Source: an uncultured Fibrobacterota bacterium (GTDB lineage: Bacteria > Fibrobacterota > Chitinivibrionia > Chitinivibrionales > WJKA01). Taken from it: DNA of 64,000 nt. The notes beneath the pieces are model-generated. The model was not told where the DNA came from. It worked only from the letters and a program-made list of their open reading frames with translations, and did not search any database. Both the position numbers and the translations under genes were made by a program. Positions 1 through 12,045 of the stretch are shown piece after piece; positions within the stretch are counted from its first letter, which is position 1, and each line of letters begins with the position of its first letter. The DNA is taken from the NCBI GenBank assembly GCA_964571815.1, contig CAZNDN010000007.1, positions 999-64,998 of the forward strand. Reading direction: 5' to 3'.

Positions 1-1333
1 TGCTCAGCTTCCCGTACTGTTCTTCGACCATTGCGTGGTTATCGTTACGGTAGGCGATACGCATGATCCCCAGCTCGGCCGGATCGACGGCATCGCTCCG
101 GGGATAGGTAATCGTCATGTCGCGGTAGCCCTCTTCCGCCGATTCGCGCATGTCCATCTCTTCACGGCAACTGCTGTAGTAGTAGCTCACCCAGTCGTTC
201 TTGTGGAACTCGGGATACACGCCCAGGAGTTGACCGTAGATCAGGAACGCTTCCCAGTACTTGCCCGCGTAGTACAGCGCCATGGCCTTGTTATACAGAT
301 CAAACGGCGTCGTGTCCATGAGCCGCGACATCTTCCGCGCCCACACTTCTTCACGATGCCTCCCGACTTCGGTGCGGAAATAGAGCGAATGCGACGTGGC
401 AAGGCCTTCCTGCACGGCCATGGTATACTGATACACGGCGGTGAGGTCGCGACCCATACTGAGCACCGCGCCGTTGAGACCGGCGCCCATTCCCCAGTAG
501 CCTAAATCGTTCTCGCCGAATCCGAAGAGTCCGTGGAGCTTGATCAGGCGAAGGATCCACACGCCCAGCCGCGAGGAGCCTTCGTACTCGAGTCCGCTTC
601 CTCCGAGGAATTCATCCGATTCGGTCCCGAGGTCCTTAAGGTTGAAGTCCACGCCGACATCGATGCGCTCTTCCCAGAGACGGGCATCCCAGTTGACCTG
701 CAGGCTCCGGGAGAGCTTCTCCGTCTCCCCGGTTTGCGTCTCGAATGTCGGCTGAAGAACATGCCGGCCGGCGATTCCCGCCACGTGGTAGCCGAGGATG
801 GGATGGTGAAGCACGCGGTAGCTCAGTCCCACGTCGATTCCCGGCGGCACGCTGTAGCGTGTCTCCTCCCCGAACACGTTCTGCATGACTACGGTCACGT
901 TGGTTCCCACCGACAGGCGTCCCCATACGTTTGCCGCGTACGACAGTACCAGCGCATTACTTTCGAACTTTACCGTGCCCGTACGATTGAACGACTCGTC
1001 GTAACTCGGGTGCTCGGGCTCTCCCTGTCGCACCCAGGTCAGTCCCGCCGATTGAAACAGGCCGATCGGCAGGGTTGCGCTCAGTTGATGCGTCTGGAAA
1101 GAGTTGCGCATGGACGGACTGAAGACACCGAGTAGAGTCGGATAGTCCTCCTCGGTCAGCAGCGAGGGATTGCTCAGCGCCGAGTACGGAGCGAACAGCT
1201 CCCGCCAGCGCTGGGTCAGCAGATGCTCTCCGGGGAGGCCGTCGGCCCGGCACGGCACGCACAATCCCGCCGCGGCCGGCAGGACCGCAAGGCACATCAG
1301 GCATGCCTTCACGGCACGAACGTTATCGCTCAT
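1..1333 (-). CDS. Secreted barrel-like N-domain / TPR protein, paralog of 2250..4526; 3'-partial (runs off left edge)
   Basis: Absent from the ORF track because no stop lies inside the window. My reverse-complement translation from ATG 1333..1331 stays open to base 2: MSDNVRAVKACLMCLAVLPAAAGLCVPCRADGLPGEHLLTQRWRELFAPYSALSNPSLL...DLYNKAMALYYAGKYWEAFLIYGQLLGVYPEFHKNDWVSYYYSSCREEMDMRE...ELGIMRIAYRNDNHAMVEEQYGKLS. This is colinear with the 2250..4541 product (NQLYNRAMTEYWAGRFWKAYFLYARIRNEFPDFFKNDLVTHYMGSCLEEMDMRE...ELGMMRIQYRDGD). GGGAGA lies 5 nt upstream of the ATG. The N-terminus is signal-like. Confidence 0.8.
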   Translation of the reverse strand, partial: MSDNVRAVKACLMCLAVLPAAAGLCVPCRADGLPGEHLLTQRWRELFAPYSALSNPSLLTEEDYPTLLGVFSPSMRNSFQTHQLSATLPIGLFQSAGLTWVRQGEPEHPSYDESFNRTGTVKFESNALVLSYAANVWGRLSVGTNVTVVMQNVFGEETRYSVPPGIDVGLSYRVLHHPILGYHVAGIAGRHVLQPTFETQTGETEKLSRSLQVNWDARLWEERIDVGVDFNLKDLGTESDEFLGGSGLEYEGSSRLGVWILRLIKLHGLFGFGENDLGYWGMGAGLNGAVLSMGRDLTAVYQYTMAVQEGLATSHSLYFRTEVGRHREEVWARKMSRLMDTTPFDLYNKAMALYYAGKYWEAFLIYGQLLGVYPEFHKNDWVSYYYSSCREEMDMRESAEEGYRDMTITYPRSDAVDPAELGIMRIAYRNDNHAMVEEQYGKLS

Positions 1334-2183
1334 GGGAATCTCCCGGTGATCGGTACGATGAATCGGGGATGGTTTCGTCCTTTCCCATCAGCCCGGGTGT
1401 GGTCGGACACTCGCCGCAGGTGCCCTTTGTTGTGAAATCCAGATTCCGGCGCGGGGAAACAAACGCGGGATCAAACGAGTAATTGCCCGGCGGCAGTTGG
1501 CCGGGCCGATCCATATTACCGTACAAGTTATTGTCTTGGAGCGTTACCCTTTCCGCTGCAGCCTGAATCAGTTTTGCCCCGAGGCACACATTGTGGGCGA
1601 TGATATTGGATTGGACCATGAAGCTCGACTTACCTCCCACGGCCAGCCCGTGATTGTGGTTGTAGGCGATCACATTGTGCTCAACCTTTGCTTTCCCGCT
1701 CGTGACGTCCCAACCCTGTATTCCCGAGGCGCGATTGAATACGATTGCGTTGTTGTGCAGTGAAGGGAGGTGACGGACGCAGACGATACCGCTCTGACGG
1801 TTGGTCATGATCCGGCAGTCGTGCACGGCACAGCCGTCGTGACGCGAGAATACGCCGACCGTGCCGTTGCGCACGGTGACGTGACACAGGACCGATGCGC
1901 CGCCAAGAGTCACCACCGTGCCCTTGCCGCCGCCGTCGATCACCGTGGATGCCGCGGAGGCGCCCTTGAGCACGGTCCCGTGCTTGACAAAGACCTTCTC
2001 GCGGTAGACCCCCGGCCCGACCAGAACCGTATCGCCGGCGCGGGCCTGAAGAAACGCGGCGGCAATGTCGGGCGTGTCGTGCGAAGGGGTCTGGATGGTT
2101 CTGCCGTACAGACAGTCGCCCCCGATCAGGAGCAGAGCTGCCGCCGGCAGAAGGCTTTTCGGGTTCACCATGCGTCCTCTCAT
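1323..2183 (-). CDS. Secreted right-handed parallel beta-helix (PbH1/NosD-like) repeat protein
   Basis: ORF 1323..2210. Internal ATG 2183 follows AGGAGGAGA with a ~6-nt spacer and gives a signal-like MRGRMVNPKSLLPAAALLLIGG. Repeated short turns (VIDGGGKGTVVTLGG, VTVRNGTVGVFS, HDCRIMTNRQSGIVC, HNNAIVFNRASGIQG, EHNVIAYNHNHGLAVGG, QSNIIAHNV) are typical of beta-helix repeats. The stop overlaps the next gene's start by 11 nt. Confidence 0.7.
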   Translation of the reverse strand: MRGRMVNPKSLLPAAALLLIGGDCLYGRTIQTPSHDTPDIAAAFLQARAGDTVLVGPGVYREKVFVKHGTVLKGASAASTVIDGGGKGTVVTLGGASVLCHVTVRNGTVGVFSRHDGCAVHDCRIMTNRQSGIVCVRHLPSLHNNAIVFNRASGIQGWDVTSGKAKVEHNVIAYNHNHGLAVGGKSSFMVQSNIIAHNVCLGAKLIQAAAERVTLQDNNLYGNMDRPGQLPPGNYSFDPAFVSPRRNLDFTTKGTCGECPTTPGLMGKDETIPDSSYRSPGDSHER

Positions 2184-2249
2184 TCGTCTCCTCCTCGGGT
2201 ATGGGCGCATGCGACATAGACACCAATCGCGCTACCGCCCCGCTTCACC

Positions 2250-4526
2250 TTACTCCCCAAGCTCTCGTTTCAGTTGCTCGATTTGGTCGTCGATCTTCTC
2301 CATCTTCTTCTCGGTCTTGTCCAGGGTTTCCCTGGATCGGCGCTCAAACCTGCCCTTCTGAAGGAAGGCGAGCATGAACTCAAGATCGCTTCGCACCGAT
2401 TCCCTGTTTCTGCCGAAGAAGGTGCCGCGCTCGAACCGGTCGACGTAACGCAGGTGGGCATCCAGCTTCTCTTTCACGGCAAGCTGTCCCGTATGAAGGC
2501 TGTCGTGCATCCGTTTCTTCATGTCCGACTCGCTCAGCCCCGCGCACGTGCGAACATCTTCGGCCAGTTGAGCGTATTGTATCCGGTTGTTCGAGTACAC
2601 GTACGTGCTCGCCTCCAGAGCATCGGGGTCGGGGCTTTCGTAGGAATCGATCGTCGCGAGACCGTCCTTGAGAATTGTTTCGGCCGCGGTCGTGTCACCC
2701 GTTCGCAGCAGCCCGTACCCCTGGACCAGCATGCCTTCACAGCGCAGCACCGTGTCCTCGGCCGCGGAGACGAGCCTCCCGCCCACGTCAACGCAGTCGT
2801 CGTACTGCGACGCGCGGATTGCGGCCCACCCCAGGCCCAGCAACGCCTCGGGATAGTAATGACTGTCGCGCGGTACCATGCGCAGCGCAACGACCGCCTT
2901 GCTGAGTGTCCCGTTCTCGTAGAAGATGTAGCCCAGAAACAGCAGCGACCGGTGCACGATTTCCTTCTGAACATCGGTCCGTGCATCATGGCTTACGCAG
3001 TTGCCCAGATGCACTTCGGCCTTTGCGGTTGAACCGGTTAGCAGCACGTAGGCCACGGCCAGCGAGTGCTGGGCGAAGAGGTAGGAGGGGTGCGTCTCAG
3101 GCACCATGGACAGGAGTCGAATTGCGTGAGAATAGTCTTCTTCCGCTATCGCGATCTGGCCGCGCAGATAGGTTGCGTGGTGACGTATGGAATCGCCGGC
3201 CGAGACCTCGCGGCCGAACGATGTCAAGCCTTGGTATATCTCCCGGGCCTTCCGCAGGTCCCCGTCCCGGTACTGAATGCGCATCATCCCCAGCTCCGAG
3301 GCCGCGACCATCTCCGAGGTCGGAAACGAATCGAGATGGGCGGCGTACGTGCTCAGCCCCGCCTCGCGCATGTCCATTTCCTCCAGACACGAGCCCATGT
3401 AATGAGTCACCAGGTCGTTCTTGAAGAAGTCGGGGAATTCGTTCCTGATGCGGGCGTAGAGAAAGTATGCCTTCCAGAATCTCCCGGCCCAGTACTCGGT
3501 CATGGCCCGGTTGTACAACTGGTTGGGGGAGATGTTCATCTTCTTCAGCCGCCGGTGCAGCTCCTGCTCGAACCGGTGCTCGCCGAAATCGGCGCGGCAG
3601 TACATGGTGTGTGACGGGCGCAGGTCTCCTTCCATCTCATGGCGAAGCTGCCAGGCGGCCGCCAGGTCGCGGCCGGCATTGAATGAGGGGAGGTTGATGC
3701 CGAAGCAGAGGCCCCAGTGTTCCAGGCGACGTTGGCCGATACCGGCAAACCCGTGTACGGTGAAGGCTCGAAGCAGCCACACGCCTCCCTGGAAAAACAC
3801 GTCCCACTCCGGTATTTGCTCCTCATCCGGGAAATCGATCTTCTTCGACAACAGATCGCTTACGTCCGCCTGGATATCCAGCTCCACACGGTGTTCGAGA
3901 AACGACGAGTGCAGCGTTGCATTGAGCTGCGTGGCCCGCACTCGCTCGATGTCGGGATTGACCGAAAAGAAAAGGTAGTTCCGGGCGGCCACGCCGATAC
4001 CGTGCGTGCCGAGAAACGAATGGTGGAGCAGGGGGTAAAACGCTCCGATATCAAGGCCCGGGCTGGTCCGCGGATCGCCGAAATTGCTCTGGTAGAGAAC
4101 ATTGAGATTGGCCCCCAGGGCAAGACGGTGCATTGGTGTGGCGGCGTAGGTCAACATGATGAAGGTGTTGTCGTTGCTGAGATTGGTCTCCTCGAATACG
4201 TACTCGCCGGTCTCGTTGAACCGGCCTCCGTCCACCGGCATCCCGTTTTCCCCCACCAGTGTCAGGGCCGCGGTCTGATACCGCCGGACCGGGATCACGA
4301 TACCCGCCTCCCACAGGCGGGCGATACTCTCGGGAGCAACGGACAAGGCTCCGCGGACGGAAAGATAGTGCTGCTCCGAAATCAGGGCCGGGTTGGTCAG
4401 GGGAGAGTGGTGCAGGAAAAGGTTGCGCCACTGGTGGGAGAGCAGATACTCCACGGGGAGACCGTCACCGACGGCCGCCGCCCGCAGGGACAGCAGCGCA
4501 ACGGCCCACATCCGGACGCGACGCAT
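2250..4526 (-). CDS. Secreted barrel-like N-domain + TPR + C-terminal coiled-coil protein
   Basis: ORF 2250..4541. ATG 4526 has AGGAG 7 nt upstream; the 4541 ATG is part of ATGAGGAG. Signal-like MRRVRMWAVALLSLRAAAV. The N-terminal ~330 aa has an alternating strand-like pattern and an HHSPLTNPAL motif. TPR-like helices follow (YNRAMTEYWAGRFWKAYFLYARI, ALLGLGWAAIRASQYDDC). The tail is heptad-like: EKKMEKIDDQIEQLKRELGE. Confidence 0.8.
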   Translation of the reverse strand: MRRVRMWAVALLSLRAAAVGDGLPVEYLLSHQWRNLFLHHSPLTNPALISEQHYLSVRGALSVAPESIARLWEAGIVIPVRRYQTAALTLVGENGMPVDGGRFNETGEYVFEETNLSNDNTFIMLTYAATPMHRLALGANLNVLYQSNFGDPRTSPGLDIGAFYPLLHHSFLGTHGIGVAARNYLFFSVNPDIERVRATQLNATLHSSFLEHRVELDIQADVSDLLSKKIDFPDEEQIPEWDVFFQGGVWLLRAFTVHGFAGIGQRRLEHWGLCFGINLPSFNAGRDLAAAWQLRHEMEGDLRPSHTMYCRADFGEHRFEQELHRRLKKMNISPNQLYNRAMTEYWAGRFWKAYFLYARIRNEFPDFFKNDLVTHYMGSCLEEMDMREAGLSTYAAHLDSFPTSEMVAASELGMMRIQYRDGDLRKAREIYQGLTSFGREVSAGDSIRHHATYLRGQIAIAEEDYSHAIRLLSMVPETHPSYLFAQHSLAVAYVLLTGSTAKAEVHLGNCVSHDARTDVQKEIVHRSLLFLGYIFYENGTLSKAVVALRMVPRDSHYYPEALLGLGWAAIRASQYDDCVDVGGRLVSAAEDTVLRCEGMLVQGYGLLRTGDTTAAETILKDGLATIDSYESPDPDALEASTYVYSNNRIQYAQLAEDVRTCAGLSESDMKKRMHDSLHTGQLAVKEKLDAHLRYVDRFERGTFFGRNRESVRSDLEFMLAFLQKGRFERRSRETLDKTEKKMEKIDDQIEQLKRELGE

Positions 4527-4600
4527 GCGTGCGCTCCTCATCGGGTGCCTGCTCCGTTGATCATTCGTTTCCTTCCCCCATCATGTCCAACCCCGGATAC

Positions 4601-7600
4601 CTATCGCCTGACACCGATCTTCAGCCTGCGTGTCTCCGTGTGATCCTTGTTGTCTTCAATAACCACCACCGCAAGGTAGGAGCCCGTGCCCACGTAGCGT
4701 CCGTTGAGATTCGTGCCGTCCCACACAAACGCAACGTATTCGTTGCCGCCGGCCGTGGTCCCTTTCATGCGATCCACGATCAGGTTCCCCATGCAGTCGT
4801 ACAGCGAAACCGTGCCCTCCAGTCTGATATCGCCGGGGATCGGGCCCAGGGGGCGAACCAGGAGTGCGGTGCCGCGCCGTGAGCCGACACCGGCGATCGA
4901 CGGGGTCGTGGCGGTGAGCGGATCGAACGGGTTGGGCGCGGATCTTACCGAGAAACGATACTTGAACGCCCCGACAACCAGAGGCGCCATTCGGTTGTTT
5001 TCGCTGTCCTGCACATTACCCTGCTTGTCCTTGACACCCGCGGTATAATCAATTCTGAGGGAATCGCCGGACGTCGGAAATTCCGTGCCCTCGATACCGG
5101 TCACCAGGTAGGTGTGTTCCGTGCCCGATCCGGAGCGTGTTCCCCGCAACTTCATCGTGTAGCGCTGCCCCGTGCGCCCGTCGAAGAAGACCAGGGGTGT
5201 CGGTTCGGCCGGAGCATCCACCGGCTCGGAGAACGTTACCACGATGGTGTCGGGGGGTATCGATGAAGAGTCGGTGACGAAGCGGGGCCTGAAACGGGCC
5301 CGGACAATCACCGGGGCCATGTCGTCGGTGATCGGCACACGGCCGGGGTGAATCAGGCCGCCGGTGGAGGAGCGGGTACGGGCGACGGTCAGCGAATCGC
5401 GATTGTCAACCGCGGTGAACGGCTCCGTGTCCGCCGGCTGCGTTACCGCTATCTCAAATCCCTCGTCGGTCAACGAGAAGTCGTCCGCGGTGTACGTGAA
5501 GTTGCGGTGGGCTGGCAGCTCGACGGTGGAGGTCAGCTTGTCGAGCATGGTGCGGTCGGGCGGCTGATCCATGGTCACCCGTACCGCATCGATCAGCCCG
5601 TCGTCGTTCGCGTCGATATATCGCGCGGCATCTACCATGTAAAGCAGATGGTAGTTCAGCCCGCGGCGTACGTTGTTGCCCCTCTGAGCAACCGGAAGCG
5701 TGTCGGATACGCCGGCGGTCGAATCGATCCATATCGAGTCCCCCGCCGCCGGCTCGGTCCGGCCCTCAACCGGCACGACCGCGAAACGGGCCTCGCTGCC
5801 GGCGTTGTCCACGGCGGAGAGACGCAGGGAATACCGTGTCGAGGATGAGCCCCGCAGGAAAAGAAACGGCGTGGCCGAACCGATCCGCTTCACCGACTCG
5901 GAAAAACGCACCACAAGGGTGTCGCGACCGTCGATGTCGGCGAGATCGTAGTAGTCGGCGCCGACGATCACCGGCCCCATGCTGTCGGCCAGTGCAATGT
6001 CGGTTGAAGGAAACGCTCCTCCGCGCGGCAGGTCCGGTACCTGGTCGATGTACAGCCGCTCTTGAGGGTAGAGCCCGGTGAACGGCTCCTCGTCGGCGCC
6101 GTGCTTCAGCAGGATGTCAAATCCGCGTGACGAGGGGATCACCGAGGTCACCTCCTGGTCCCGATCGGACTGTACCTGGATAAACGGCGTCACCGCCTCG
6201 ATTTCATCGGCGTAGAGCGTGTCGCCGAATTCCACCCTGATCACATCCGCGTACCCGTCGGCCCTGCCACCGCTCTGGTCCAGGTAGTACGCCTTGCTCA
6301 CCTCCAGGTCGCGAAGCGGCAGGACGCGCACGGCCAGCCGCACGACATCGCAGGGAATGTCGGGGTTGCGGTACGTGACGATCACCGAATCGTTAAGCCC
6401 GTTCTGAAGTGTGTCGTCGATAGCCGGGCTCCCGATTGCCCGGTTGAAACGGGCGCCGAAATAGCTCCCGTGATTCTCCGTGGTCAACACGAGTTCATCG
6501 GAGCCCGTTGCATTGGTTACCCGCAGCGTGACTTCATCGATCGGAAACTCCGACGGTGGATAGAAGCGCGCCTGCAGCGGAGTCCAGTCGCCCTCGATTT
6601 CGGTGACCACTTCGTTGGCGTAGCGCAGCTCCAATATGCCCTGATCCCAGCACTCCAGGCGAATGTAGTACGAATCCTCCTCGATTGCGGCCCGGTCCAG
6701 GGAACGGACCACATCGAAAGAAAACTCCCGGGTCGTATCGATATTGAGAGGATCAAGATAGTAGTAGCGGAAGCTGACATCGAATGTCGTGGTGTCCGAT
6801 TCCAGGATAAAGGGCTCGTCGAAGTACGCCAGGGTGGAGTCAAACGATACGGCCGACACACCGTTCATGGTGAGAGCACGCGGTTCCGAGGGAAAGATTT
6901 TTTGTCCCATTCCGGGAAACTTGTTGAGCAGCCGGTCGATCAGCTCCCCTTCCTTGCCCGACACTTTCCAGACTTCGCTCTGGATATTGGTGGTCGAATA
7001 CCCGTTGTCCTTAATATTGCCGGTCATGGTGTTGATTTGATCCGGTATGGGCTGAGTCTCGTTGATAAAGAAGGCGGTGAAGGTTGTCGGCACATCCTCG
7101 CCATCCTGGTAGTCGAGTTGGTTCGGCCGCCGTTCGACATCGACGTACTGATGCACGCCGTCGGAGAGAAAGATCGCGTATTGCCGGTCGGCGGGGTAGC
7201 GCGCCGTCTCGAATGCCTTCTTCGCCGCCTCAAAGGCCAGGGATATGTCGGTGGTGGTGTTGTACCCGGTCACGGGATTGCCGGCGATATCATGACCGCT
7301 GTGGCGTCCCGTGACGCCGTAATTGGCATTGAGGAGCCGGCGGTTTCCGCCGATATCCGTGTCGTTGGGTGTGGGGCTCAGCGCGATCGACCACTTGAGT
7401 TTCTCCACCGCCGACATGCTTCCGACCGTGGTGTCAAGCCGGGTGAGGGGGATGTAGGAATCGTGCCACTCGCCGGAGGGATCGAGCTGAACGAAATAGG
7501 AATCGTCGCGGTAGTCGTGCAGAAGCTGGTTGGAGAATACCGTGATGCCGACTTCCGAAGCCGGCGAACGCGCGGCAAGCGTGTCGATGAGCTTCTTAAC

Positions 7601-7915
7601 GACGTCGTAGCGTGAAGCGGTGGAATCCATGTAGCTCATACTTCCCGAATGATCGATAATGAAGAAGAGCGAGATGGTGTCTTCGGTTTCCACCACGGGT
7701 CCTTCCCTGAACGAATCGGGGGCACAGTGCTCGAAGATCTCAGAAACCATGACCACGCTGTCGGGCACGTGCACGGTATCTCCCTTCCAGTTCAGCGGAC
7801 AGTCGATGACGGCTTTGCAGATCCGGCCGCCCGACACTGGGCGCCCGCCCGCGGCGAGCAGCGCCACGAAGGCCGCGACGATCGCGGGGTTCGGTGCAGG
7901 GCAACGCTTTCTCAT
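4601..7915 (-). CDS. Giant secreted vWA-domain protein with C-terminal FlgD-Ig / T9SS-type sorting domain
   Basis: ORF 4601..7930. ATG 7915 is preceded by AGGAG with a 7-nt spacer. Signal-like N-terminus. vWA/MIDAS block LFFIIDHSGSM...ITVFSN...AIFLSDGV. C-terminus APNPFDP...VSLYDCMGNLIV...FVWDGTNLNGRYVGTGSYLAVV...LKIGVRR. Confidence 0.85.
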   Translation of the reverse strand: MRKRCPAPNPAIVAAFVALLAAGGRPVSGGRICKAVIDCPLNWKGDTVHVPDSVVMVSEIFEHCAPDSFREGPVVETEDTISLFFIIDHSGSMSYMDSTASRYDVVKKLIDTLAARSPASEVGITVFSNQLLHDYRDDSYFVQLDPSGEWHDSYIPLTRLDTTVGSMSAVEKLKWSIALSPTPNDTDIGGNRRLLNANYGVTGRHSGHDIAGNPVTGYNTTTDISLAFEAAKKAFETARYPADRQYAIFLSDGVHQYVDVERRPNQLDYQDGEDVPTTFTAFFINETQPIPDQINTMTGNIKDNGYSTTNIQSEVWKVSGKEGELIDRLLNKFPGMGQKIFPSEPRALTMNGVSAVSFDSTLAYFDEPFILESDTTTFDVSFRYYYLDPLNIDTTREFSFDVVRSLDRAAIEEDSYYIRLECWDQGILELRYANEVVTEIEGDWTPLQARFYPPSEFPIDEVTLRVTNATGSDELVLTTENHGSYFGARFNRAIGSPAIDDTLQNGLNDSVIVTYRNPDIPCDVVRLAVRVLPLRDLEVSKAYYLDQSGGRADGYADVIRVEFGDTLYADEIEAVTPFIQVQSDRDQEVTSVIPSSRGFDILLKHGADEEPFTGLYPQERLYIDQVPDLPRGGAFPSTDIALADSMGPVIVGADYYDLADIDGRDTLVVRFSESVKRIGSATPFLFLRGSSSTRYSLRLSAVDNAGSEARFAVVPVEGRTEPAAGDSIWIDSTAGVSDTLPVAQRGNNVRRGLNYHLLYMVDAARYIDANDDGLIDAVRVTMDQPPDRTMLDKLTSTVELPAHRNFTYTADDFSLTDEGFEIAVTQPADTEPFTAVDNRDSLTVARTRSSTGGLIHPGRVPITDDMAPVIVRARFRPRFVTDSSSIPPDTIVVTFSEPVDAPAEPTPLVFFDGRTGQRYTMKLRGTRSGSGTEHTYLVTGIEGTEFPTSGDSLRIDYTAGVKDKQGNVQDSENNRMAPLVVGAFKYRFSVRSAPNPFDPLTATTPSIAGVGSRRGTALLVRPLGPIPGDIRLEGTVSLYDCMGNLIVDRMKGTTAGGNEYVAFVWDGTNLNGRYVGTGSYLAVVVIEDNKDHTETRRLKIGVRR

Positions 7916-7951
7916 CGGTACACTCCTCATGGATATGTCAACCGCGGTCCG

Positions 7952-8437
7952 TTACAGCCCGGCCTCACCAAGGCGAAGCGAGATCCGGTAGCCGCTTTCC
8001 GATTTGGCAAGAAGGTAAATCGTGCTTGTTCCCCGATAGGAGTCGATCTCCCCGAGGTATTCTTCGGCGATCGAGACGCGCAAGGCCAGATCGCCGTTGA
8101 AATTTCGTCCGAAATAGTCCTCATAAAGCTCCGGCACGATCCGTTTGTGCCCGGGAGCGAGGGGACCGTCCCGAGCGCTGATCAGCCGCAAATCTCCCTT
8201 GCCGTAACGCATGCACATCCGTATGTGCTGCTTCTGCGCGGGCGAAAGGCAGTCGAAGAATGAGCGGGAAAGTTCGATATCGCCGTGTGCCTTGGCGATG
8301 GCACATACCAGCGAGTCCATGTTTTCTATTGACGGCAGCACGCGGCGCCACGCGCGGCGCGGAAGCGCGGAGGCATGATACCGCGGAGCAGTGCAACCCA
8401 TGGTCAGCAGCAAGGCAAAAGCAAATGCACGTGCCAT
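7952..8437 (-). CDS. Small putative lipoprotein, unknown function
   Basis: 161-aa ORF. GAGAAGG lies 8 nt upstream of the ATG, inside the end of the upstream gene. N-terminus MARAFAFALLLTMGC is lipobox-like. It sits between the two vWA paralogs with 12-nt and ~36-nt gaps. Confidence 0.6.
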   Translation of the reverse strand: MARAFAFALLLTMGCTAPRYHASALPRRAWRRVLPSIENMDSLVCAIAKAHGDIELSRSFFDCLSPAQKQHIRMCMRYGKGDLRLISARDGPLAPGHKRIVPELYEDYFGRNFNGDLALRVSIAEEYLGEIDSYRGTSTIYLLAKSESGYRISLRLGEAGL

Positions 8438-8449
8438 ACAAGAACCTTC

Positions 8450-11185
8450 TCAATTCTCTTTCACGCCGATTCTCAGCGTCATTCGTTTCGAAACATCCCC
8501 GCCGTCGATCGTGATTACCGCCAGGTACGTCCCTCCGCCGACCCTCCGTCCGTTGCGATTAGTGCCGTCCCAGACGAAGAAGTGGCGTGCGGTGCCGGAG
8601 GGAAGGTGGGCCGGCGGAGGATCCTCGAGTGCCATGGGCCGATTGAGCACAACCGGATTCTTGACGACGTCGTAGATCGAAAGTGTGGCGCTCGGGCGCT
8701 CGGTGCGCACGGTCAGACCCCGTGATTCCACCATAATCACCACTCCTTCGTGTGTTCTCTTTCCACCTTCGGACACAATCGCCCGGATGAAGGGTGGTAC
8801 CGGAGATTGGCCGGGCACGAACGGGTTGTTTGCCGCGTGGGGGGTGAATGTGACGGGGCCGGTGGTCAGCTCCAGCAACGCGCGGCGATTCAGCGGGTTC
8901 CGCTGGACATTGTCGCCGATATCGCCCACGAGCGCCGAGGGATCGATCCAGACCGAATCACCCTTCGTGGCGCGCTCGACACCCCGGATCTCGCGCACAA
9001 AAAAACCCGCTTCCATCCCGCCGGTTCCCTCCGGCGCAAGAACCATCGTGTAGCGCTCGCCGCCGGGTACGGTGAAGCTCAACGGCGTACTGTTGGTCAC
9101 GCGGTTGACCGTCTCGGAGAACCGGATGCTCAGGGTGTCTTCCCCCTCGATCGGGCCCAGGCTCAGCCGGGCGCTCAGAATCACGGGGGCAACCTTGTCG
9201 TCGATTCCGACGGTTCCGCCGTTGAGCCAGGTTCCCGAGGATATCGGGGCTTCCTCGATCGTGAGTTTGTCCTCGGCGGTGACGCCGGTGAAAGGCGTGG
9301 ATGAGCCTTCCGTTACCAGAAGGCCGATACCTCCGCCGCCGGCCGCCTCCGCGCCCGCAACCGCGAATTCCCGGTGCGGGGGGAGCGTGAACCGCGCGGC
9401 AATGGCCGCAATATCCCCGGCCTCGAAATCCCCGTCGATTCCCACCCACACGCTGTCGATAAGACCGTCGGCGTCGCGATCGAAATATGCGGCACTGTGC
9501 ACCGCCACGACCTCCCCGGCGTTGAACGGGACCGAGACGCGAAGAATGTCGTCGGGATTGTCGGGGTTTTCCCAGGTGACAATGATACTGTCCCGCGGGC
9601 CGTGCTGCAGCACCCCGTCGTTGCGGTCCGCATTCGTTTCGACCCTTCGGGGGAAGCTCCCCGACCACCACTTTTCCCGCCGCCCCAGGTCAAGCTCTTC
9701 GCGGTCTTCGTCCCCCGCGTGATTGGTCACTTCCACTTCGCATTCGTCCGTCGTGGTATCGCCGGTCGACAGTCGAACTTCCAGCGTATCCATAAAATTG
9801 AATACCTGGTCCACCTGCCTGCCGTCGTGAAGCAGTTGGATGCCGCGGCCGTACCGGCAGTTCACTTCCGTACCCTCCGGGGGCACGGCAGTGCCGATCC
9901 TGCGTACGTAGAAGTCGATTCCGTGCGTGGTGTCGCGCTGCTCTGCGGTCGTGACGTCACGCTTGCGATACGTGATATCGAAATTGAAATGGGTGAGTTC
10001 ACCGGTAATCGGAAAGCCGCCGTCGAAAATGAAAAAGCTGTCGGAGACCGTGGTCGTGGCGATCGAATCGTTGACCGAAAACCGGTAGGGCGTTCCGAGC
10101 GTGACCGTGAGCACGGTCTGCACGACCTTACCCATGAGAAGCTCCAGCAGGCTTTCGTGGGTGGCCTCCAGGGCCCAGACCTCACTGTAGCGGTTGGAAA
10201 AGGAGTACCCGTTTGCGCGGGTGTTTTCGGTCATCTGGTTGATACTCTCCGGACCTTCGCGGTCCGAGGTGAAAAAGACCGTGAAGGTGGTGGGCATGCC
10301 GACTCCCTCCACAAAATCCAGCGCGGGCTTGCCTGCCTGGCTTCCACCGCGCGGCTCGCCGTCGGAGAGAAGAACCATGAACTGGTTTTCTACGGGGTTG
10401 GCGGCGCCGGGAAGGATCTGTCGCACGGCCTCGAATGCGCCGTTGATATTGGTCGTGACATTGGCGCTGAAATTCGGTTCGTATTCCAGATCGACGAATT
10501 CGTAGGGGTCGGGCGGGTTCCGGATGCTTGCGCTGGGATCGCCCAGCGAGGTGTCGACGGCGAGAATGTCCTTGATGATGTCAATCCCTTCCCTGCCGTC
10601 GTATTCCCGGTGCAGATTTATAAACGGGAGAAAGGCCTGGTCGGGTTCCTCGTCGATCACCTCGTCGAAACGCTGAAAGTATTCGGCAAAGTATTCATCG
10701 CTCGTAGGATCGAAGTAGAGGTGCTCGCGGAAGACGACCAGGGCCACCTCGGCCGAATCCCATCGGGCGTAGATCGTATCCAGGAGTTGCTTGGTCACCG
10801 TGAAACGCGATCCCATGCGGTCGTGCGGGTAGGAGTCGCTGGTACTGATCCCCATCATGCTGCCCGTATGGTCGATGACAAAAACGATCGAAGGGGAGCC
10901 GCCTTGTACGGTCACGCCTTCACCCAGTTCTCTGAAATCGCACGCGCGAATACCGGCGGAGAGGTAGTTCACCGCCTCGGGAACATCGATCGTATCACCG
11001 TTAAAATTCTCGGGACAGCCGGTTACCACCAGTTCACAGATTTCTTCGCCGAGTTGGGCATGTGCCCGTGGGTGCATACAGAGGAGTATCCCGATCCATG
11101 CGCCGATCAGGCCCATGCCGGGAAACCTGCGTTTGTCCGGGAAGACCCTCCGTGAAGCTGGAACCGTGCGTCCGGGGGCGATCAC
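8450..11185 (-). CDS. Giant secreted vWA-domain protein with C-terminal FlgD-Ig / T9SS-type sorting domain (paralog of 4601..7915)
   Basis: GTG 11185 overlaps the upstream stop (GTGA). Alternative ATG 11116 gives MGLIGAWIGILLCMHPRAHA-Q. vWA block IVFVIDHTGSM...LVVFRE...MVLLSDGE. C-terminus NNPFVP...LSIYDVVKNPVV...FVWDGTNRNGRRVGGGTYLAVI...LRIGVKEN. Colinear with the other vWA giant. Confidence 0.85.
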   Translation of the reverse strand: MIAPGRTVPASRRVFPDKRRFPGMGLIGAWIGILLCMHPRAHAQLGEEICELVVTGCPENFNGDTIDVPEAVNYLSAGIRACDFRELGEGVTVQGGSPSIVFVIDHTGSMMGISTSDSYPHDRMGSRFTVTKQLLDTIYARWDSAEVALVVFREHLYFDPTSDEYFAEYFQRFDEVIDEEPDQAFLPFINLHREYDGREGIDIIKDILAVDTSLGDPSASIRNPPDPYEFVDLEYEPNFSANVTTNINGAFEAVRQILPGAANPVENQFMVLLSDGEPRGGSQAGKPALDFVEGVGMPTTFTVFFTSDREGPESINQMTENTRANGYSFSNRYSEVWALEATHESLLELLMGKVVQTVLTVTLGTPYRFSVNDSIATTTVSDSFFIFDGGFPITGELTHFNFDITYRKRDVTTAEQRDTTHGIDFYVRRIGTAVPPEGTEVNCRYGRGIQLLHDGRQVDQVFNFMDTLEVRLSTGDTTTDECEVEVTNHAGDEDREELDLGRREKWWSGSFPRRVETNADRNDGVLQHGPRDSIIVTWENPDNPDDILRVSVPFNAGEVVAVHSAAYFDRDADGLIDSVWVGIDGDFEAGDIAAIAARFTLPPHREFAVAGAEAAGGGGIGLLVTEGSSTPFTGVTAEDKLTIEEAPISSGTWLNGGTVGIDDKVAPVILSARLSLGPIEGEDTLSIRFSETVNRVTNSTPLSFTVPGGERYTMVLAPEGTGGMEAGFFVREIRGVERATKGDSVWIDPSALVGDIGDNVQRNPLNRRALLELTTGPVTFTPHAANNPFVPGQSPVPPFIRAIVSEGGKRTHEGVVIMVESRGLTVRTERPSATLSIYDVVKNPVVLNRPMALEDPPPAHLPSGTARHFFVWDGTNRNGRRVGGGTYLAVITIDGGDVSKRMTLRIGVKEN

Positions 11186-11970
11186 AGCCGAACCTCGCTT
11201 TCGCCGATCGTTTCACCCCGACCTGCGGTGCAGGTGATTCCCGACGCACGGAATGTGCTCCGACGGGGGGAGCAGCCGGCAGGTCCACGTTTTCTGCCCA
11301 GCAGGTCAACCGCCTCGGTCCGGCTCGATAGGTTCAAAGGATTGGCCGGCCCGGCGTAGTTTTCCGCGATGCCCGCGGGCTTCCCGGTGAGAACCAGCAG
11401 TCGCCTTTCGCCGGCAACGTAGATCCGGTCTCCGTCAACCGTTACCGCCCCGTACCGGCGCGAGGGATCGCTTCGGGCGCCGACAAGCTCGGGGATTTGC
11501 GGGTTGGACACATCGTGGATCCGCAGAAATCCCGGCGATCCGACAACGTAGAGATACGTGCCGGAAACACAGAGCGCGGCAATTCGTCCCGACGGGACCG
11601 GGAGCCCGTGTCCCAGACGCGCGATCTGGTAGGTGCTGTTGGAAGAAATGCTGAACATATATCCGTCGAGATCGTCGGTGAGATTGAAAAGCAGACCGAT
11701 ACGGCTGTACGAGGTGCAGGCCGGGTGAAGTGAGAGGGTGATGGAGCATTCGGAGGGAAGCACCAACGAGTGCCGCACCATGCCCATGGCGATCCCGTCG
11801 TTGGTTACCTTCAGTGCGCAATGGACCGAGGAGATCTCCAGGAATGCATCGATTCGTTCAATTTCCGTCCACTCTTCGGTGGTACAGAAATCCAAAGACG
11901 GCGGCAGTGCTCTGCTTGACAGCGTGGCCGTCAGCACAACGATGCTTACCCACCGAAGTGATCGTTTCAT
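11182..11970 (-). CDS. Secreted LVIVD-repeat-like protein with short T9SS-CTD-like tail
   Basis: The track ORF starts at TTG 12045. ATG 11970 has GAGGG 7 nt upstream and gives MKRSLRWVSIVVLTATL. YLYVVGSPGFLRIHDVSNPQIPELVG...VTVDGDRIYVAG resembles LVIVD repeats. The tail GPANPLNL...AVDLLGRK...RASGITC...SEVRL resembles a degenerate type-A CTD. Confidence 0.6.
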   Translation of the reverse strand: MKRSLRWVSIVVLTATLSSRALPPSLDFCTTEEWTEIERIDAFLEISSVHCALKVTNDGIAMGMVRHSLVLPSECSITLSLHPACTSYSRIGLLFNLTDDLDGYMFSISSNSTYQIARLGHGLPVPSGRIAALCVSGTYLYVVGSPGFLRIHDVSNPQIPELVGARSDPSRRYGAVTVDGDRIYVAGERRLLVLTGKPAGIAENYAGPANPLNLSSRTEAVDLLGRKRGPAGCSPRRSTFRASGITCTAGRGETIGESEVRL

Positions 11971-12016
11971 TGCGGCACCCTCGCTTGCACCGGGCCGGGG
12001 AGATACTCCTCTCAGG

Positions 12017-12045
12017 AATATAGATAATGGTTTTGGGGAACGCAA
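12017..12045 (-). promoter_or_regulatory. Putative sigma70-type promoter of the minus-strand operon (TTGCGT-N17-TATATT)
   Basis: Reverse complement of 12017..12045 reads TTGCGT TCCCCAAAACCATTATC TATATT. It lies 47 nt upstream of ATG 11970, in an AT-rich island within GC-rich DNA. Confidence 0.35.

Follow-up and report, generated by a model that had tools for sequence, protein, structure and literature searches.

Two neighbouring minus-strand genes in a 64,000-nt stretch of DNA (hereafter the window) from an uncultured Fibrobacterota bacterium of the order Chitinivibrionales (contig CAZNDN010000007.1 of assembly GCA_964571815.1, positions 999 to 64,998 of the forward strand) encode large paralogous proteins with a von Willebrand factor A (vWA) domain, here called A (8450..11185) and B (4601..7930). 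On balance, both proteins are probably surface adhesins of a multi-copy Fibrobacterota family (Chitinispirillaceae/Chitinivibrionales), which would be exported by Sec and a route resembling that of type IX secretion (T9SS) and served by a dedicated outer-membrane partner. New here is the combination of a probable adhesin, built of an unnamed immunoglobulin (Ig)-like module, with a partner fusion not described before. Chitinivibrionia are specialists on insoluble chitin or cellulose, and we know of no account of how they attach to the polymer. The A/B family, multi-copy and lineage-restricted, with hypothetical protein as its sole annotation, offers a concrete candidate for such an adhesin.

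Gene A is a 911-codon open reading frame (ORF) starting from GTG at 11185 (if translation began at the ATG further downstream, 11116, the product would have 888 aa), and gene B is a 1109-codon ORF. A preliminary description, made by reading the DNA alone, had presented them as two large colinear paralogous ORFs, and the ORF list and BLASTP confirm this, at just the coordinates given there, for the minus strand, on which all features given below lie unless noted otherwise. The proteins are 29% identical across an alignment of 785 positions (E = 7e-72) and are colinear from the N-terminal signal peptide to residue 770 of A, while a second BLASTP segment aligns A 554–909 with B 758–1108 (34%, E = 2e-38). 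Thus, the likeness is far beyond chance, runs from end to end, and extends past the vWA and C-terminal ends to which it might have been confined. It follows from the second segment that B holds an extra copy of a unit of ~215 aa. The overall layout is the same in both proteins, as had been proposed, except that this unit occurs twice in B and once in A; the unassigned central sequence, put at ~600 aa in each, is in fact ~430 aa long in A and ~650 aa in B.

A word-indexed search with B returned 56 homologues, all annotated as hypothetical protein, and every named source among them is a Fibrobacter, Chitinivibrionales, or Chitinispirillaceae metagenome-assembled genome (MAG) or Chitinispirillum alkaliphilum (CHISP_0528). 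When one genome per species was scanned, 59 loci came to light; each of them belongs to a Fibrobacterota MAG, and the richest MAG has at least nine. No paper linking vWA proteins with Chitinivibrionia taxa was found in the literature searched.

Both proteins begin with a signal peptide, assigned by eye. In B, the signal peptide (~aa 1–35) and a Cys-containing N-terminal segment (aa 36–85), delimited by direct reading and conservation, occupy 7676..7930. Conservation was assessed by aligning B and 36 full-length homologues (37 sequences), among which C38 and C44 are nearly invariant and H68 and C69 invariant, so that the B family has four conserved cysteines, three ahead of the vWA domain (C38, C44, and C69) and one behind it (C427). 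The two Cys-containing strings to which attention had been drawn, CPLNWKGDTVHVPDS and CPENFNGDTIDVPEA, correspond to B 44–58 and A 57–71.

The divergent vWA domain that follows spans aa 86–340 in B (6911..7675) and, by homology to B, ~aa 99–356 in A (10118..10891). The quoted motifs of the MIDAS (metal ion-dependent adhesion site) lie at B 93–98 (DHSGSM) and A 105–110 (DHTGSM). All five metal-coordinating positions are present in B (D93-x-S95-x-S97, T227, and D257) and are invariant across the 37 sequences. In A, Thr (T107) replaces the first MIDAS Ser, which makes a hydroxyl-conserving DxTxS variant (D105-x-T107-x-S109, T245, and D275). Pfam VWA_2 (PF13519) matches B above its cut-off of 27 bits (33.0 bits with the whole protein and 37.4 bits with the sub-region) and A with 15 bits, which is below the cut-off, in the region homologous to the vWA domain of B; among the homologues, VWA_2 is matched in 37/37 and VWA (PF00092) in 23/37. 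Judging by these residues and profile matches, the heads of A and B are highly divergent vWA domains with an intact MIDAS metal site.

Behind the head, a neck of two β-sandwich domains is predicted in B (aa 341–545; 6296..6910; with the invariant C427) and likewise in A (~aa 357–560; 9506..10117), which aligns here with B 342–545. The repeated unit comes next. In B, it forms the stalk modules X1 (aa 546–758; 5657..6295), composed of the half-modules Xa and Xb, and X2 (aa 764–986; 4973..5641); A has a single module X (aa 563–773; 8867..9499) with two Ig-like half-modules. X1 and X2 are 30% identical (E = 2e-23) in a direct BLASTP comparison, which reveals the repeat, although BLASTP of B against itself does not. 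AlphaFold2 models based on the family alignment are confident both for the neck (B 338–548; predicted local distance difference test, pLDDT, 90.5; predicted template modelling score, pTM, 0.74), which appears as two sandwiches, and for X1 (B 544–766; pLDDT 94.5, pTM 0.87), which appears as two sandwiches plus one short helix. The repeat unit is, according to these models, a two-domain module preceded by a separate two-domain neck. Xa opens with A-x-Y-x-D-x-[DN]-x-DG-x-x-D, a loop of the DxDxDG type that reads DANDDGLID in X2 of B and DRDADGLID in A, and Xb carries DSMAPVI...DTLxVxFSE...GDSIxI...D..GN.Q. As a member of a known motif class, the loop at the module start may bind Ca2+ and so stiffen the stalk.

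The earlier statement that the central region has no nameable domain still holds, as neck, X1, and X2 have no Pfam match at E ≤ 10 and profile searches of PDB sequences, made with the whole B family and with the module, gave no match for either part. Big_5 (PF13205) is likewise unmatched in A and B at E ≤ 10, and it is found in 2/37 homologues at E ≤ 0.01 (best 6e-4). The proposed term "undescribed beta-sandwich module" is a fair description: the models are all-β, and a Foldseek comparison of the neck and X1 models with the PDB has no hit below E = 0.001 and lists generic Ig-like folds with TM-scores of 0.2–0.47 (SbsC, scFv pairs, SiiE BIg, archaeal S-layer, RbmA, complement MG domains, and PorU). 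As a fold class, Ig-like is commonplace; what lacks a name is the sequence family.

Among the best matches, there are S-layer and matrix proteins (SbsC 2ra1, Nitrosopumilus S-layer 8c8k/8c8o, and RbmA), which would fit structural proteins of a surface coat or of cell-cell cohesion. Arrays of Ig-like domains would then assemble by themselves into a lattice of the S-layer or matrix type, the MIDAS mediating protein contacts in the lattice or with a neighbouring cell and not binding a substrate. The high copy number of the family per genome is in line with such a role, as is the tandem arrangement of paralogues, in pairs or longer arrays, from which hetero-oligomers could arise. However, the S-layer matches are weak (E > 1e-3, TM 0.2–0.4) and stand among generic Ig folds such as those of antibodies, and a stalk of variable length with a single terminal head is typical of adhesins rather than of lattice proteins. 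We hold a lattice role to be unlikely and take A and B as probable adhesins in what follows.

Adhesins of a different kind have also to be considered. Mfa5 of Porphyromonas gingivalis is a fimbrial tip adhesin that combines a vWA domain, Ig-like domains, and a T9SS C-terminal domain (PMC7835359), and A and B share with it the logic of a vWA domain with MIDAS, Ig-like domains, and a C-terminal sorting domain, which is putative in A and B. Moreover, the Cys69 segment and neck Cys427 could, by analogy with Mfa5 D2, mean that the vWA domain is inserted in an Ig-like domain. A and B might then be tip adhesins of the Mfa5 or RrgA kind, built into a pilus shaft. Yet there are no Mfa1–4/FimA-type or sortase-pilin genes in the operon of the window or in the six loci L001–L006, no CnaA/CnaB or pilin structures among the Foldseek matches of the neck and module models, and no sequence match to Mfa5 (6tnj/6to1), RrgA, or GBS104 in the PDB searches. 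The Mfa5-type pilus reading is very improbable, and it was rejected on gene context.

The module itself is widespread. A profile built from 25 copies (213 positions) and searched against 1.84 billion cluster representatives finds 1218 proteins at E ≤ 0.001, 307 of them at E ≤ 1e-30. The relatives contain from one to five full-length copies, and the protein lengths rise in steps of ~220 aa, clustering near 880, 1100, 1320, 1560, and 1780 aa, so that the proteins form a length series. The module also closes the C-terminal end of a 2093-aa cadherin/Big_9/Calx-beta protein. Hidden Markov models (HMMs) of the half-modules distinguish two kinds of single-module B-like proteins: X2a+X2b is kept in P0025 and P0028, and an in-register hybrid X1a+X2b is found in the ~880-aa B relatives P0038–P0051 and P0153. 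These hybrids suggest that the number of modules has been changed by unequal recombination between the copies. A-type and multi-copy proteins have a generic unit, X2a-like followed by X1b-like.

This composition bears on the recurring sequence blocks of the preliminary description. All of them were found (DADGLID at A 571–577, DDGLID at B 776–781, and also RFSETVNRV, RFSESVKRI, GDSVWID, and GDSIWID), and the recurrence is real, but the quoted pairs mix the module copies: the first half-module of A resembles the second copy of B and its second half-module the first copy, so the pairs cross between copies.

Three giant proteins, P0141 (3398 aa), P0170 (2981 aa), and P0193 (6012 aa), are matched by the module profile only partially, 15–25 times each, over profile positions 84–157, 120–146, and 2–137, respectively. 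As P0141 belongs in Pfam to DUF7239 as well, there is a hint that this family and the module are remotely linked.

Both proteins end with a FlgD-Ig-like putative sorting domain, located at ~aa 995–1109 in B (4604..4948) and ~aa 790–911 in A (8453..8818), where it contains an inserted PPPAHLPSGTARH stretch. A FlgD-like tail is present at the extreme C-terminus of all ~56 homologues. FlgD_ig (PF13860) is matched in 23/37 homologues at E ≤ 0.01, about 10 homologues have precomputed PF13860 matches, and the B family profile matches the FlgD structures 3c12 and 3osv at E = 0.03–0.05. CHU_C (PF13585), the model of T9SS type B cargo, is found in 11/37 homologues at E ≤ 0.01 (best 6.4e-6), and P0037 has a precomputed PF13585 match. 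In addition, the tails weakly match the C-terminal domains of PorZ (A) or of PorU and PorZ (B). Finally, the tail of a small protein whose gene neighbours that of a distant paralogue passes the type A model TIGR04183 (27.2 vs 23 bits) as well as FlgD_ig; it shares the motif F-WD-x4-GR-V-x-G-Y with the A/B family tail, and hhalign aligns it with the tail of B at E = 0.0044, with a probability of only 7.9%.

A T9SS has been reported for Fibrobacterota (PMC11285876), and Sorokin et al. reported that surface hydrolases of C. alkaliphilum carry Por-type sorting domains (PMC4814513). In a termite Chitinivibrionia genome, the FlgD domain of a fibro-slime protein was taken as a sign of flagella-mediated attachment (PMC4704652). 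Contrary to the latter reading, the present data suggest that the FlgD-Ig-like C-terminal domain found on many surface proteins of this lineage is a sorting or anchoring domain.

The proposed assignment also draws on the gene context. The gene order is a hybrid ORF, A, a small lipoprotein gene, B, partner 1, a gene for a NosD-like β-helix protein, and partner 2, which is cut by the window start; the intergenic gaps within the apparent operon are 12, 21, 59, and 39 nt, and the order is identical in a 90%-identical relative. Partner 1 (763 aa; 2250..4541) starts 59 nt after B and consists of a signal peptide, a β-rich N-terminal domain of ~310 aa, and a YbgF/CpoB-like tetratricopeptide repeat (TPR) region. 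In C. alkaliphilum, the orthologues of A (37%), B, and the partner (35%) are adjacent, with A directly upstream of B and the partner directly after it. Other genera have vWA–partner units, sometimes two in succession, or the order vWA–vWA–partner–NosD–partner. A survey of 67 vWA gene ends with at least 1.5 kb of DNA downstream showed that the next gene is a partner within 18–178 nt in 26 cases, another vWA paralogue of the array in 18, and a homologue of the small lipoprotein in three.

The C-terminal TPR region of the partner resembles YbgF/CpoB in 37/37 family members and BamD-type TPR in 25/37. The N-terminal domain has no Pfam match. Its periodicity, in contrast to the TPR half, is of the β-type amphipathic/hydrophobic kind, and recurrent sub-threshold matches to T9SS proteins fall in this non-TPR part. 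When six N-terminal domains were tested, four matched NCBIfam PorV_fam (best E = 8.8e-7); across the partner family, PorV_fam is found in 16/37 members at E ≤ 0.01 (best E = 5.6e-7) and PorQ in 2/37 (8.1e-8). PorP/SprF is found neither among the 37 partners at E ≤ 0.01 nor with the six N-terminal domains at E ≤ 10. These matches suggest that the N-terminal domain of the partner is a remotely PorV/PorQ-like outer-membrane barrel.

A number of results weigh against an assignment to T9SS-like adhesins with a dedicated partner. As for the head, the VWA_2 match in B spans profile positions 2–48 only, and no solved vWA domain was found by PDB sequence searches, whether with the B family profile or with the vWA region alone. 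As for the tail, no curated model is passed by A or B: FlgD_ig scores 21.8–22.2 bits in B and 16.5–18.8 bits in A, and CHU_C 13.9 and 12.4 bits, respectively (cut-off 27 in both cases); the type A models TIGR04183 and PF18962 have no match at E ≤ 0.1 in whole A and B or at E ≤ 10 in their last 120 aa, and the type A sorting model is matched in 0/37 homologues. No T9SS core genes lie within the window. As for the partner, the best PorV_fam score is 28.8 bits against a cut-off of 90, the partner of the window itself has no PorV match, and profile searches of PDB sequences with the N-terminal domain found nothing, although PorV structures exist. Finally, 20/67 vWA gene ends, those of distant paralogues, are followed by neither a partner nor a vWA paralogue nor the lipoprotein; instead, these genes precede TonB-dependent receptors, a giant unrelated TPR protein, a hybrid histidine kinase, or small proteins with a C-terminal domain. 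Since the curated thresholds of the T9SS families are not reached, A and B should be described as working like T9SS cargo and not as members of a known cargo family.

The same failures can be read as evidence for secreted or vesicle-borne vWA proteins with T9SS-independent export, in which the FlgD-like tail would be merely a structural Ig domain and the neighbouring TPR protein an unrelated YbgF/CpoB or BamD-type factor of the periplasm or outer membrane, in accordance with the fact that the strongest matches of the partner are to these TPR families and that PorV is not found for it among PDB sequences. This reading leaves aside, however, that the tail always stands at the extreme C-terminus and resembles those of PorU and PorZ and the lineage tail that passes TIGR04183, that PorV/PorQ-family matches recur specifically in the non-TPR part of the partners, and that the tight vWA–partner adjacency is kept across genera. 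We consider it distinctly unlikely.

Another possibility raised by the presence of vWA and TPR genes in one operon is a Bat-like (BatA–E) envelope complex, in which vWA and TPR proteins act in the periplasm or inner membrane, as known from the Bacteroides aerotolerance operon; a weak BatC-type TPR match is even present in the giant TPR neighbour of a distant paralogue. But there is no MoxR ATPase or DUF58 gene in the operon or the orthologous loci, and none of the features of A and B is Bat-like (cleavable signal peptides, no later membrane-spanning helices, Ig-like domains over ~400–650 aa, and a C-terminal domain of the sorting type). The Bat-operon reading, the most improbable of all, was rejected on gene context.

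The T9SS-like adhesin assignment can be put in terms of a mechanism. A and B would be exported by Sec and then cross the outer membrane by a T9SS-type route, with the C-terminal domain as the signal recognised. The vWA head would then be shown at the tip of a stalk whose length is adjustable by whole modules, and it might bind, via the MIDAS cation, a ligand either on the insoluble polymer on which the cell feeds or on another cell. The partner, of which the operon has two paralogues, would combine a PorV/PorQ-like outer-membrane barrel with a periplasmic TPR region and would most likely be the dedicated shuttle or anchor of A and B, a model taken from PorP/SprF with type B cargo or from PorQ with PorZ. 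As there are two vWA proteins and two partners in the operon, a one-to-one pairing is possible. A bolder and rather doubtful proposal is that the cassette represents a third, Fibrobacterota-specific T9SS cargo–shuttle pairing, where a FlgD-Ig-like tail, which the curated models place in neither type A nor type B, is recognised by a dedicated PorV/PorQ-derived outer-membrane barrel fused to a periplasmic YbgF/CpoB-like TPR domain, thereby coupling a length-adjustable vWA adhesin to the envelope.

The small lipoprotein gene between A and B, already recognised in the preliminary description, is a 161-aa ORF at 7952..8437, separated from the upstream gene A by 12 nt and from the downstream gene B by 21 nt. 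Its lipobox (LLLTMG followed by Cys), like the signal peptides, was read without a predictor. The lipobox stretch MARAFAFALLLTMG precedes Cys15, which does not vary among five homologues with an overall identity of 30%, and 11/17 codons changed in a close relative are synonymous. The protein has no family match, and a word-indexed homologue search returns only the query itself; a tblastn search of the loci yielded three distant ones (30% identity) directly after vWA arrays in three MAG loci (L021:14310-14792, L023:2671-3174, and L024:14522-15004). These arrays comprise one to four tandem vWA genes, and the homologues take the slot held elsewhere by the barrel–TPR partner. The lipoprotein is absent from the C. 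alkaliphilum locus. Its distribution makes it a likely recurrent accessory of the vWA gene arrays.

Between the partner genes lies the gene of a NosD-like right-handed β-helix protein (295 aa; 1323..2210; Pfam Beta_helix and NosD), which has an equivalent position in L003, L005, and L006. Partner 2 (1..1333), a paralogue of partner 1 with the same N-terminal domain and TPR region, is cut by the window start and corresponds to a 764-aa gene of L005 and L006; its start at 1333 overlaps the stop region of the NosD-like gene. The apparent operon opens with an ORF of 287 aa (11182..12045), which has a weak LVIVD repeat and is a hybrid that arose through loss of ~1.77 kb relative to a close relative. 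In comparison with the region L005:4092-6731 of the close relative, the window lacks L005:4545-6311, and the start of a 459-aa gene is thus joined to the end of a 393-aa LVIVD-repeat gene. The DNA identity to this relative is 90% downstream of the hybrid junction and 77% upstream.

In the remainder of the window (12360–64000), large ORFs were checked from ~12 kb on; they lie on the plus strand, and the GC skew is strongly positive. The nine plus-strand ORFs checked encode CHAP, DUF4423, trehalose-6-phosphate phosphatase, GH65, ProRS, CysRS, rpoB, rpoC, and fusA. The A/B locus is chromosomal. In the JGI metagenome contig L002, a type VI secretion cluster (L002:17431-22652; TssA/VasJ, VipA, VipB, Hcp, gp25, and TssF) is situated ~2.5 kb downstream of a vWA–partner cassette and is probably a coincidental neighbour. 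At the distant loci that have no partner (L052:12073-14166, L056:8962-11109, L035:5190-9986, and L044:8881-13662), the next genes encode TonB-dependent receptors or a TPR protein of ~1600 aa. A diverged partner behind these paralogues was considered and rejected: the 1598-aa TPR giant after L035 and L044 is unlike the partner N-terminal domain.

Several points give the A/B family a more general significance. It brings to light a two-domain Ig-like module that has no name so far and occurs in over 1200 protein clusters, together with a natural length series of one to five modules and hybrids suggesting in-register recombination. The conserved candidate cargo–partner pair would extend the "dedicated shuttle" idea of the T9SS outside Bacteroidota. 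C. alkaliphilum is thought to bear chitinase on its cell surface (PMC4814513). As this cultured organism has a matching gene order around CHISP_0528, the idea is testable.

Among known systems, the stalk can be compared with Ca2+-stiffened repeat adhesins of bacterial Ig-like domains (SiiE and RTX adhesins) and with Big_5 domains of the SbsA/SbsC type. The shared feature is a tandem Ig-like extender with Asp-rich loops that joins the anchor to the head that binds the ligand; SiiE and SbsC rank high among the fold matches of the neck and module models, and Big_5 is weakly matched in two homologues. Here, in contrast, two different sandwiches (Xa, with the DxDxDG loop and one helix, and Xb) form the repeat as a specific pair, for which Pfam has no model, and A and B would not be exported by a type I secretion system (T1SS).

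Mfa5 (PDB 6tnj and 6to1) is similar as a surface protein of a Gram-negative member of the Fibrobacteres–Chlorobi–Bacteroidetes (FCB) group with a signal peptide, a vWA domain in which the MIDAS is complete and extra insertions occur, Ig-like domains, and a C-terminal domain directing outer-membrane export, as would be the case for A and B. It differs in having no detectable sequence similarity to them. The vWA domain of A and B is near the N-terminus and is followed by a series of non-Cna Ig-like repeats, their locus has a gene for a proposed dedicated barrel–TPR partner in place of an mfa-type fimbrial operon, and their tail fails the type A C-terminal domain model.

PorV and PorQ (NF033709 and NF033711) are recurrently matched by the N-terminal ~310 aa of the partner, which have β-type periodicity, and PorQ holds PorZ via an uncleaved C-terminal domain; the tails of A and B weakly match the C-terminal regions of PorZ and PorU. 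On the other hand, the partner reaches at most 28.8 of the 90 bits, the solved PorV sequences are unmatched, and the known members have no TPR fusion in the literature searched.

For the type B cargo of the T9SS, PorP/SprF proteins from neighbouring genes act as anchor or shuttle (PMC9143113, PMC12618676). Unlike in the SprB–SprF and PG1035–PorP pairs, the partner in the window has no PorP/SprF match, shows remote PorV/PorQ-family matches instead, and is fused to a TPR domain of ~430 aa; the tail of A and B scores higher with FlgD_ig than with CHU_C, and the host belongs to Fibrobacterota and not to Bacteroidota. What the systems have in common, apart from the weak CHU_C matches in 11 of the 37 A/B-family homologues, is the arrangement itself: a large repetitive adhesin with a C-terminal signal domain is encoded directly upstream of the gene of a plausible outer-membrane binding partner.

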